A program made the position numbers. Source: Escherichia coli (GTDB lineage Bacteria; Pseudomonadota; Gammaproteobacteria; Enterobacterales; Enterobacteriaceae). Taken from it: a stretch of DNA of 64,000 bases. Positions 51,901 through 54,900 of the stretch are shown piece after piece (position 1 is the stretch's first letter; every line of letters begins with the position of its first letter). The stretch lies in the NCBI RefSeq assembly GCF_003018235.1, contig NZ_CP027437.1, one strand, 5' to 3'.

Positions 51901-54900
51901 CTTCGGCGGATAAATTTCGAATATCCGCAGTTTGCCCGGTGGTTTCTCAATAAATTGCTGAATGTCACGATAGCTGGTTTCATGATGCTGCACCAGATTG
52001 ACCAGCGGCTGCAGGCTACTGTCACCCAGCCAGCGTTCCATGCGTTTGAACCACTGCGGCGTGTAGTACATTTGCGACGGCACGGTGCGGATGACGACCA
52101 ACGTTTTTGCTCCCTGCCTTGCCGCCTCTTTAACCGGAATCGCATCACTGATCCCACCATCCAGGTAGTTAATGCCTTCCAGCGACACTCCGCTACGATA
52201 AAAGCCAGGTATCGCACTGGAGGCGCGAATCACATCCAGCCAGTTTTGTTTGGTTGGTAAAAAGTAATTCGGCGCATAGTCATCCTGACGACAGGCGCAC
52301 ATATAAAACGATTTGCCGCTGTCAAACAACCGCGCGGCGGTATCCATTTGCAACGGCATCTGGCTTGCGGTGGCCTCCACCAGCCAGTCGAGATCGATAA
52401 GATTTCCTCCACGGACAAAGCGCAATGGATCGAAAAATTCGCGTTTTGTGGTATAGCGCATGATGACTTTGCGCGCGTAACCGGGCTGATTGCAGATATA
52501 CGCCGAGAGGTTCTGCGCCCCGGCAGATGTGCCGAGATAAAGATCGAAAGGATTAAACTGCGCGCGCATAAACTCATCCAGCACGCCAGCCGTGAAAATT
52601 CCACGCTGTCCGCCGCCTTCGCACACCAGAGCTATTTGTCCAGGCTGGAACGGCCTTAGCGACAACGGCGCAATATTACCAAGCGTTACAGGTATTCGCT
52701 GCCCCACCTCTGCCTTCCTGTTTTTGTTGTGAAAGAATGACAAAGTAACGCAATTTATTATTCGCTAAAACCGCAAAAGCCAGTCCGCTGGACTGGCTTT
52801 GGATAAAATTTTCTTAATGGTCTGAAATCTAGGGTCGTTTTCGGCCCATGAACAAACTCACCAGGAACAGAATAATCCCGACGACAAAGACAATTTTAGC
52901 TGCGCCTGCAGCGGTACCGGCCAGACCACCAAACCCAAGTGCGGCGGCGATTAACGCGATAACCAGAAATATGATGCCCCAACGAAACATAAGCGTCTCC
53001 TTTACCATAGTTAATGTCACCGCTTGATATGAGCGTGAAAATCACACAATGCGATATTTTTAGTGTGGTGCACATCGCGCCTCCCGACAAAGTTCGGGAG
53101 GACGAATTACGACGAATTACTTAGTTTTGAGATCATTTTTAACGCTTTTCACACCATCTACCGCTTTGGCGATACTTTCAGCACGGTCGCTCTGTGCCTG
53201 GGAATCGACGGTACCGGAGAGCTGAACCACGCCGTCGGTGGTTTCAACTTTCACATGACGGGAAGGGACGATATCGTCCGCCAGCAGTTTGGCTTTGATT
53301 TCACTGGTGGTGGCGGTGTCACCCGCGTAGCCCTTCACCGAGCCTTCTTTAGCGTCGCGAACGTGCAGTTTGTCGCTGACAGAGGTCACCCCTTCAACGC
53401 CTTTCGCCACTTTCACTGCCTCTTCGGCCTGAGCCTGGCTTTCAACGAAACCGCTCAGGGTCACGACTTTTTGATCGGTTTTGACAGAGATATCGGTGCT
53501 CTTAATGTTGTCATGATCCACCAGCGCCGCCTTCACTTTCGCGGTGATGGCGCTGTCATCCATGAAATTACCGACTTTATTCATAGAGCTATCGACTTTT
53601 TGCCCTGCGCTTTCATTGGTAGTCTGCGCGTTGTTTTCTGCGTAGGCAGAGCCGGTCGCGACGGCAGAGGTCAACATTACAGCCAGCAGAGTTTTCGAAA
53701 TCTTCAGTCTTGTCATAGTCATCGATTTATTCCTGTATGTTTGCTCGTAATTTGAGCCTGGCAACACGAGGTTGCATTGCTGAATAGGGAGAGACTTCAC
53801 CCTCTACAGAAGTCAATGGTCGCCATCACAAAAGCGATGGGTGATGAATAACGACCATTACAGCCTCTGAATCAGTTATTAATATCGGTAGAATGACAAT
53901 CGACGGCTTTAGATACTGATATCTACGCATTGAACGGTATTTAACGCCGTCAGAAATGTCATTACTTTGTTAAATATAGATCACAATTTTGAAACCGCTC
54001 GGGATATCAGCGAAAACATAAGCAAAAGTGAATGTTTTAAGAACATTCCGTAAGCGGCTAATAAGGAAGGGAAATTGACAGGGCGCAGCGGCTACCGCGC
54101 CCTGGAGGCAAGAATTAATGCTCGCGGGTCTGGTGGAACTGAACGTCCGGATAACGTTCCTGCGCCAGGCGCAGGTTGACCATGCTGGTAGCGATGTAAG
54201 CGAGGTTATCGCCGCCATCAAGCGCCAGTTGGCTTTCGTTCTTACGCTTGAACTCTTCGAATTTCTTCGCGTCCGCACATTCTACCCAGCGGGCAGTGGC
54301 AACGTTGACTGACTCATACACTGCTTCAACGTTGTATTCGCTCTTCAGACGCGCTACCACCACATCAAACTGCAGCACACCAACCGCACCAACGATCAGA
54401 TCGTTGTTGGAGATCGGACGGAACACCTGCACTGCGCCCTCTTCGGAAAGCTGTACCAGCCCTTTAAGCAGCTGTTTTTGCTTCAGCGGATCTTTCAGGC
54501 GGATACGACGGAACAGTTCCGGCGCGAAGTTCGGAATACCGGTGAACTTCATCATCTCACCCTGGGTAAAGGTGTCGCCGATCTGAATGGTGCCGTGGTT
54601 GTGCAGACCAAGGATATCGCCAGGATACGCTTCTTCAACGTGCGAACGGTCACCCGCCATAAAGGTCAGCGCGTCGGAGATCACCACATCTTTCGCAGTA
54701 CGCACCTGGCGCAGCTTCATGCCTTTTTCATATTTACCGGACACCACACGCATAAACGCCACGCGGTCGCGGTGTTTCGGGTCCATGTTGGCCTGAATTT
54801 TAAATACGAAGCCTGTAAATTTGTCTTCGCTCGCCTCTACGGTACGGGTATCAGTCTGACGCGGCATCGGCGCAGGGGCCCACTCCACCAGGCCATCCAG

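Follow-up and report, generated by a model that had tools for sequence, protein, structure and literature searches.

A 10-bp tandem repeat across the osmY stop codon of Escherichia coli: probably an old and nearly fixed duplication

Background

The closest described counterparts of the osmY repeat are the tandem duplications of the slippage type, with which it shares identical head-to-tail units, rare alleles that are one unit apart, a place in non-coding DNA and the lack of any consequence for the protein. Phase-variable contingency loci resemble it in carrying a tandem repeat at or over the boundary of a coding sequence, in their case a multi-copy tract that switches frequently. Intrinsic terminators and 3' stabilising stem-loops have in common with the osmY 3' end a GC-rich, covarying stem-loop shortly after the stop codon, with the transcript 3' end at the base of the stem; a canonical intrinsic terminator also needs a U-tract. 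Finally, the CpxR box (consensus GTAAA-N5-GTAAA) is similar in that it consists of two direct GTAA pentamers spaced by 10 bp, ahead of a gene that is induced by envelope stress.

The repeat was noticed in a 64,000-nucleotide stretch of E. coli DNA, referred to here in its entirety as the window. A sequence-only reading of the window had described a perfect 10-bp tandem repeat overlapping the osmY stop codon, had judged it to be probably a slipped-strand event that may be strain-specific, and had given it little functional weight unless the osmY 3' end were altered in comparison with other strains.

Results and discussion

Position and sequence of the repeat

The repeat is real, and both its coordinates and its description were correct. 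On the + strand, GACGAATTAC occurs twice, head to tail (53101-53110 and 53111-53120; direct string check), in the context ...cctcccgacaaagttcgggag GACGAATTAC GACGAATTAC ttagttttgag..., and Tandem Repeats Finder returned the same interval (53101-53120; period 10, 2.0 copies, 100% matches). The period-10 identity is confined to these 20 bases. On the coding strand, the repeat unit is GTAATTCGTC and the sequence reads AAG TAA TTCGTC GTAATTCGTC CTCCCGA..., corresponding to an mRNA that runs AAA ACU AAG UAA UUCGUC GUAAUUCGUC CUCCCGAACUUUGUCGGGAGG across the end of osmY. The + strand second copy (53111-53120) is the one that is transcribed first and is called stop-proximal here; the osmY TAA stop, the complement of 53117-53119, lies inside it. 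The features of the region are as follows:

53117-53722, - strand: osmY coding sequence, 201 aa plus TAA at 53117-53119 (ORF list and transferred K-12 RefSeq annotation)
53111-53120, - strand: stop-proximal copy GTAATTCGTC, made up of the last base of the Lys codon AAG, TAA, and 6 nt of the 3' UTR
53101-53110, - strand: hairpin-proximal copy GTAATTCGTC, in the 3' UTR and adjoining the GC-rich hairpin
53080-53101, - strand: core GC-rich hairpin CCUCCCGA-ACUUUG-UCGGGAGG, without U-tract (RNA fold and consensus structure)
53074-53075, - strand: osmY transcript 3' end, transferred from MG1655 4612044/4612043 (PMC7815308)
52829-52990, - strand: ytjA, encoding a 53-aa DUF1328 membrane protein (K-12 and O157 RefSeq annotation, ORF list)

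All BLAST matches at the locus were annotated as 'osmY: molecular chaperone OsmY'. The first base of the stop-proximal copy is a wobble base, the last codon being AAG, CAG, CAT or CAC across species. Because the stop codon is part of the unit and the first TAA in frame remains unchanged, the OsmY protein is indifferent to the number of copies. Indeed, the OsmY accession of five of the seven strains with a single copy (see below) is that of K-12 (WP_001295748.1), with the TAA kept, and the little functional weight given to the repeat at the outset holds.

Other candidate identities of the 20 bases were dismissed. Allowing at most one mismatch, GTAATTCGTC matched the window eight times (3.8 expected), two of the matches being the repeat itself and the others being scattered, which argues against a dispersed repeat family. 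A plus-strand ORF over the repeat (53014-53124, 36 aa) was taken as spurious, since it runs opposite to the osmY 3' UTR, in antisense, and is unannotated in the RefSeq loci examined. A scan of positions 52500-54200 with the Rfam 15 covariance models (E <= 1) gave no match on the repeat or the 3' UTR (53040-53130). Elsewhere in the scanned region, sub-threshold matches were obtained to snoTBR5, taken as chance, and to 'osmY RNA' in the 5' leader.

Distribution among E. coli genomes

A 200-bp query of the locus matched 5,423 of the 5,426 complete E. coli genomes, and the 39 full-length matches in an evenly spaced sample of 40 all spanned exactly 200 record bases. The two-copy length was present in 5,416 of the 5,423 genomes with the locus. 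The 20 bp are identical in K-12, O157:H7 and MS14385, from which the window differs nearby only by a synonymous Leu codon (CTC versus CTG at 53129), with 128 genomes sharing the state of the window. A 40-mer centred on the repeat was retrieved exactly from 4,676 genomes and with one or two mismatches from 740. Similarly, in a sensitive search with the K-12 70-mer, 4,549 genomes matched perfectly, a further 867 had one to three mismatches, and seven matched at 85.7%, the latter being the one-copy alleles. The supposition of strain specificity is refuted by these counts, as well as by the occurrence of the repeat in other genera. The sequence-only reading had regarded a duplication carried by all strains as ancestral and unremarkable, and the comparison of osmY 3' ends across strains gave essentially that picture.

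What does vary among strains is a point polymorphism and, rarely, the number of copies. The GTAATTCGAC variant of the hairpin-proximal copy, a T/A polymorphism at window position 53102 (a>t on the + strand), was found in 615 genomes (exact search with the GAC 40-mer); among six variants sampled, five carried GTAATTCGAC in the hairpin-proximal copy and the sixth had a C>T change in the hairpin. Other point changes near the repeat occur in about 125 genomes. Overall, E. coli consists of approximately 86% of genomes with a perfect repeat, approximately 11% with a 9/10 repeat, approximately 2% with other nearby changes, and 0.13% with one copy. A synthetic one-copy query retrieved exactly seven genomes, with a span of 190 bp, and a synthetic three-copy query retrieved none of the complete E. 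coli genomes.

Each of the seven one-copy alleles is a clean deletion of one unit (...AAG TAA TTCGTC CTCCCGA...), with the TAA intact. They occur on three flank haplotypes, namely that of MB53, that of HCP4S3_I4 and K99B, and that of FDAARGOS_1058, JNE082640, MB30 and PEC145. This suggests that the one-copy state goes back to at least three independent collapses. The strains of the four-strain haplotype were sequenced independently and deposited from Germany, Japan, Cuba and Korea. Assembly errors could in principle be present among the seven alleles, but the independent recovery of one haplotype from four strains favours a heritable allele over assembly noise. Such exact one-unit deletions make the slipped-strand mechanism that was put forward for the repeat plausible. 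The seven strains provide natural variants for studying the distance between stop codon and hairpin and the formation of the 3' end.

Age and conservation of the repeat

Eighty species representatives were retrieved via OsmY and their 3' ends were extracted. The two copies compare as follows:

E. whittamii and E. albertii: 10/10 between copies, GTAATTCGTC GTAATTCGTC
Escherichia sp. MOD1-EC7003: 9/10, the second copy being GTAATTCGAC
Salmonella enterica subsp. arizonae: 9/10, GTAATTCGTC GTAATTCGAC
A Citrobacter amalonaticus genome: 9/10, GTAATTCGTT GTAATTCGTC
C. youngae, C. werkmanii and allied Citrobacter: 7-8/10, GTAATTCGAC TTAATTCGTC

In diverged Citrobacter lineages, the identity between copies is 5/10 (Camal1) or 3/10 (Camal2 and C_HRGM), and in Intestinirhabdus the length of the spacer is kept with copies that are only 4/10 identical. 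Among the 80 representatives, the two-unit repeat is absent from Enterobacter, Lelliottia, Kosakonia, Buttiauxella and others, the 3' UTRs of which are unrelated and unalignable. As the two-unit architecture is common to Escherichia, Salmonella and Citrobacter, it predates the radiation of these genera. The outgroups offered no alignable single-copy ancestor, Salmonella and Citrobacter being two-unit already, so that an origin by duplication is the parsimonious reading of these data rather than a demonstrated event. T and A at position 53102 were each seen in both copies across genera, which leaves the ancestry of the two states ambiguous; a perfect repeat, as most E. coli genomes have it, could be a derived state.

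Identity to the window was calculated for 19 Salmonella and Citrobacter sequences:

Stop-proximal copy: 0.86
Hairpin-proximal copy: 0.79
Hairpin: 0.81
Remaining osmY-ytjA spacer: 0.81
Last 60 nt of osmY: 0.84

Hence, in this comparison, the repeat was not conserved above its surroundings. Judged from these alignments, the whole osmY-ytjA spacer appears to be constrained, being unusually well conserved across the three genera, as much as the flanking osmY coding sequence, and purifying selection may act on some function that includes the repeat.

The osmY 3' UTR and the end of the transcript

Folding of a 111-nt region on the coding strand gave a minimum free energy of -28.4 kcal/mol (z = -2.77). 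In the predicted structure, UUCGUC of the hairpin-proximal copy pairs with GCGCGA (one bulge), thereby lengthening the core stem downward, and the core hairpin starts with the last C of this copy. The stop-proximal copy is predicted to be unpaired save for two marginal pairs, which are missing from the centroid structure. The core stem comprises nine consensus pairs, three of which show compensatory changes among Escherichia, Salmonella and Citrobacter. Nearly all of the 80 species have a GC hairpin behind the osmY stop (the call was weak at two loci), and a U-tract almost never comes after it; in the window, the sequence 3' of the stem is CGCGAUGUGCACC, without a U-rich tract. As it has no U-tract, the osmY hairpin falls outside the definition of a canonical intrinsic terminator. 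A consensus scan for terminators and promoters found no site at the repeat or the hairpin, and it also missed the genuine terminator of ytjA, which has only four T in the scored segment.

The 3' end of the osmY transcript has been mapped by Term-seq, with a 'primary' end at MG1655 4612044 (Adams et al. 2021; PMC7815308, supplementary file 1) and an end at 4612043 in a second condition (PMC7815308). The layout of this table, in which 50 nt precede the end and 10 nt follow it, was confirmed by its sgrS row (PMC7815308), and the transfer of coordinates was validated by the ytjA terminator end at 4612345, which corresponds to window position 52773, within GGCUUUUGC. The transferred osmY end lies 43 nt past the stop, precisely where the extended stem finishes on its 3' side. 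With the 3' end at 53074/53075, the entire repeat is located within the osmY mRNA. This end may be left by exonucleases that trim the transcript as far as the stem, or it may reflect inefficient termination, with some transcription reading through into ytjA.

ytjA is the next gene and lies on the same strand as osmY, the repeat being located 111-130 bp upstream of the ytjA ATG. Under envelope stress caused by a LolCDE inhibitor, ytjA was upregulated 18- to 36-fold and was co-induced with osmY, and the authors of that study asked of ytjA 'In operon with OsmY?' (PMC5105897). NaF caused near-equal fold changes of ytjA and osmY, the regulators given for ytjA being YieP, FliA and Nac (PMC10100675). 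Furthermore, a SELEX peak of the RpoD holoenzyme was found in the osmY-ytjA spacer (PMC3946193), and ytjA of Salmonella has been listed among the small proteins controlled by σS (PMC5437024). A hairpin without U-tract, combined with partial read-through, would fit these observations.

Origin and possible role of the repeat

The reading best able to account for these observations, and one that is probably right, is that of an old, nearly fixed, ancestral 10-bp tandem duplication that spans the osmY stop and the start of the 3' UTR and that is near-neutral. Its most likely origin is a single event of replication slippage or unequal exchange, no later than the ancestor that Escherichia, Salmonella and Citrobacter share. 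Both copies are transcribed within the 43-nt 3' UTR. The hairpin-proximal copy would make up the 5' side of the lower terminal stem, either co-opted for that role or already in it, and the stop-proximal copy would constitute an unpaired spacer of about 11 nt between stop and stem. Occasional collapse to one unit would occur through reverse slippage. The data show that the repeat is present, how widely it is distributed, how old it is, that OsmY is unaffected and that the repeat lies within the transcript, whereas slippage as its origin, the role as a spacer and near-neutrality are inferred. The repeat has no demonstrated function of its own.

The alternative that survives best, unlikely as it is, holds that the duplication was retained as a spacer, keeping the stem clear of a ribosome stopped at UAA so that the hairpin, which would define or protect the osmY 3' end, can form during translation. 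Such a ribosome is expected to cover the mRNA just past the stop, and hence part of a one-copy stem. The second copy shifts the start of the extended stem from 1 to 11 nt after the stop, and that of the core stem from 6 to 16 nt. Across the 80 Enterobacteriaceae loci, the median distance from stop to stem is 11 nt, most values being between 7 and 20 nt. Two-copy E. coli, with 11 nt, sits at this median and the one-copy allele is at 1 nt; only two loci, both of them poor hairpin calls, fall lower. A spacer role is also consistent with the rarity of the one-copy alleles and with the mapped 3' end at the base of the stem. However, a low slippage rate of a two-unit repeat predicts the same rarity, and a one-copy lineage sampled four times on three continents is not strongly deleterious.

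Marginally less probable again is the more general proposal that the two-unit repeat is under selection as a cis-acting element, in the osmY-ytjA transcript or in the spacer, be it as a spacing device or as a phased protein-binding repeat. In the former case, the hairpin would be held clear of the terminating ribosome, which would set the stability of the osmY mRNA and the read-through into ytjA; in the latter case, a phased direct repeat would serve the promoter of ytjA. Either way, the rare alleles with a single copy would represent natural variants in expression.

It is improbable that the two copies are similar by chance and that no duplication event ever took place. The osmY repeat is the only perfect tandem duplication with a period of at least 10 in the 64-kb window. 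Simulations with a first-order Markov model (600 replicates) gave 0.065 perfect period-10 repeats per window and 0.087 perfect tandem repeats with periods of 10-30, with an analytic value of 0.062 for a period-10 match, which makes the repeat a mildly unusual find in a single window (p of approximately 0.06-0.08). Extrapolated from the window rate, a 5-Mb genome contains several comparable perfect repeats by chance, and imperfect 9/10 matches would be much commoner still. Statistics alone do not prove a duplication event, therefore, and the lack of an alignable single-copy ancestor is compatible with chance similarity too. Recurrent deletions of exactly one unit, on the contrary, are the behaviour of a tandem repeat, and the two copies have kept a likeness of 7-10/10 across three genera despite independent substitutions. 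Both observations argue against chance similarity.

Far less credible is the possibility that the direct repeat, phased at 10 bp along the helix, serves as a CpxR-like response-regulator site for the ytjA promoter. The repeat holds GTAAT-N5-GTAAT, the only GTAAW-N5-GTAAW match in the window, at the distance from the ytjA ATG given above, in a spacer with the RpoD-holoenzyme peak and upstream of a gene that is strongly induced by envelope stress. However, each pentamer agrees with the CpxR consensus at four of five positions only, the motif is expected 0.33 times per window (at least one match in 32 of 100 shuffles), the conservation of one of the two GTAA is explained by the stop codon within it, and the second pentamer is TTAAT in most Citrobacter. 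Moreover, the induction of ytjA parallels that of osmY, which is explained by co-transcription (PMC5105897, PMC10100675), and the studies consulted on ytjA regulation contain no link between CpxR and ytjA (PMC5105897, PMC3946193, PMC10100675). A resemblance of the repeat to the RcsB box was unconvincing by eye.

A recent, strain-specific slipped-strand duplication, of which a perfect repeat of exactly two units is the expected outcome, can practically be dismissed, given two copies in nearly every E. coli genome, identically in K-12 and O157:H7, and their presence in E. albertii, E. whittamii, Salmonella and Citrobacter.

Conclusions

The osmY repeat is neither a strain marker nor a cause of change in OsmY and, as such, matters very little. 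It represents a clean case of a 10-bp duplication that has been recognisable since before the split of Escherichia and Salmonella and that is perfect in most E. coli. The hairpin next to it, almost always devoid of a U-tract across the Enterobacteriaceae, still marks the 3' end that has been mapped ahead of ytjA, a gene co-regulated with osmY.

Compared with the known systems, the repeat departs from each in some respect. It differs from typical slippage repeats in having two units only, in being variable in as few as 0.13% of genomes, in never being expanded, and in being ancient. It differs from contingency loci in the absence of a multi-copy tract and of frequent switching, with frame and stop unaffected; indeed, a phase-variable locus was rejected on the basis of the 0.13% of variant alleles and of a stop and protein that are the same in one- and two-copy alleles. 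The hairpin differs from a canonical intrinsic terminator through the missing U-tract, in E. coli as well as in almost all of the 80 relatives. Unlike a CpxR box, the repeat has imperfect pentamers at a chance-level frequency, one of them being explained by the stop codon. In kind, the osmY repeat is already known: it is an ordinary repeat, present in the K-12 reference, inside a transcript with a mapped 3' end.

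Transcript 3' ends and the osmY-ytjA boundary

The elements considered in the window were the following:
52769-52806, - strand, canonical intrinsic terminator of ytjA, GCCAGUCC-AGCG-GGACUGGC, then UUUUGCGGUUUU
52991-53079, non-coding spacer between osmY and ytjA
53074-53105, - strand, osmY 3' hairpin region, compared with loci L004-L083
53102, + strand, a/t polymorphism in the hairpin-proximal copy of the 10-bp tandem duplication (53101-53120)
about 53720-53886, - strand, osmY 5' leader

A hairpin lacking a U-tract follows osmY in E. coli and in nearly all of 80 Enterobacteriaceae species (L004-L083). 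The U-tract is absent, yet the osmY 3' end mapped by Term-seq (MG1655 4612043/44; Adams et al., PMC7815308) coincides precisely with the base of the extended stem, which consists of the core hairpin and lower pairs supplied by the hairpin-proximal copy. Such an arrangement points either to a stem-loop with a protective or processing role or to a leaky terminator that lets transcription continue into ytjA, which is co-regulated with osmY. For the ytjA terminator, the Term-seq end is located at MG1655 4612345, corresponding to window position 52773 (Adams et al., PMC7815308); a consensus terminator scan gave no call at this intrinsic terminator.

Conservation of the spacer was about as high as that of the flanking osmY coding sequence when Escherichia, Salmonella, and Citrobacter were compared. 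Its invariant blocks, which include GCACCACACTAAAAATATCGC and GACATTAACTATGGTAAAGGAGA, presumably correspond to a putative promoter of ytjA together with its leader and ribosome binding site. In E. coli MS14385, an IS1 element (L003, 749-1446) lies directly after the osmY hairpin and before ytjA; its insertion point corresponds to window position 53075 approximately, and it cuts ytjA off from osmY and the conserved upstream spacer.

Sequence variation in and near the repeat

The T/A polymorphism at 53102 reduces the repeat to 9/10 identity in 615 of 5,426 E. coli genomes, with loss of a U-G pair at the extended-stem junction; Salmonella arizonae and Escherichia sp. MOD1-EC7003 share the variant state. 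The final osmY codon varies by species (AAG, CAG, CAT, or CAC), and the first base of the stop-proximal copy (53111-53120) is therefore a wobble position. The repeat is broken at this base in L006 (a record titled E. coli SCPM-O-B-8794), L012, and L020. Further into osmY, the window carries at 53129 the leucine codon CTC versus CTG in most E. coli, a synonymous change. An exact 70-mer with this state is common to only 128 complete genomes, among them that of strain 7/2, which is 100% identical to the window across 200 bp.

RNA signals in the osmY leader

Two RNA 3' ends classed as 'orphan' in the Term-seq data (Adams et al., PMC7815308) map to MG1655 positions 4611232 and 4611381, which precede the osmY ATG by 164 and 15 nt, respectively. 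Also in the leader, positions 53720-53778 gave a sub-threshold match to the Rfam family RF03036, 'osmY RNA' (16.9 bits, gathering score 46.9; E = 0.76). These signals could reflect a leader-derived or prematurely terminated RNA.
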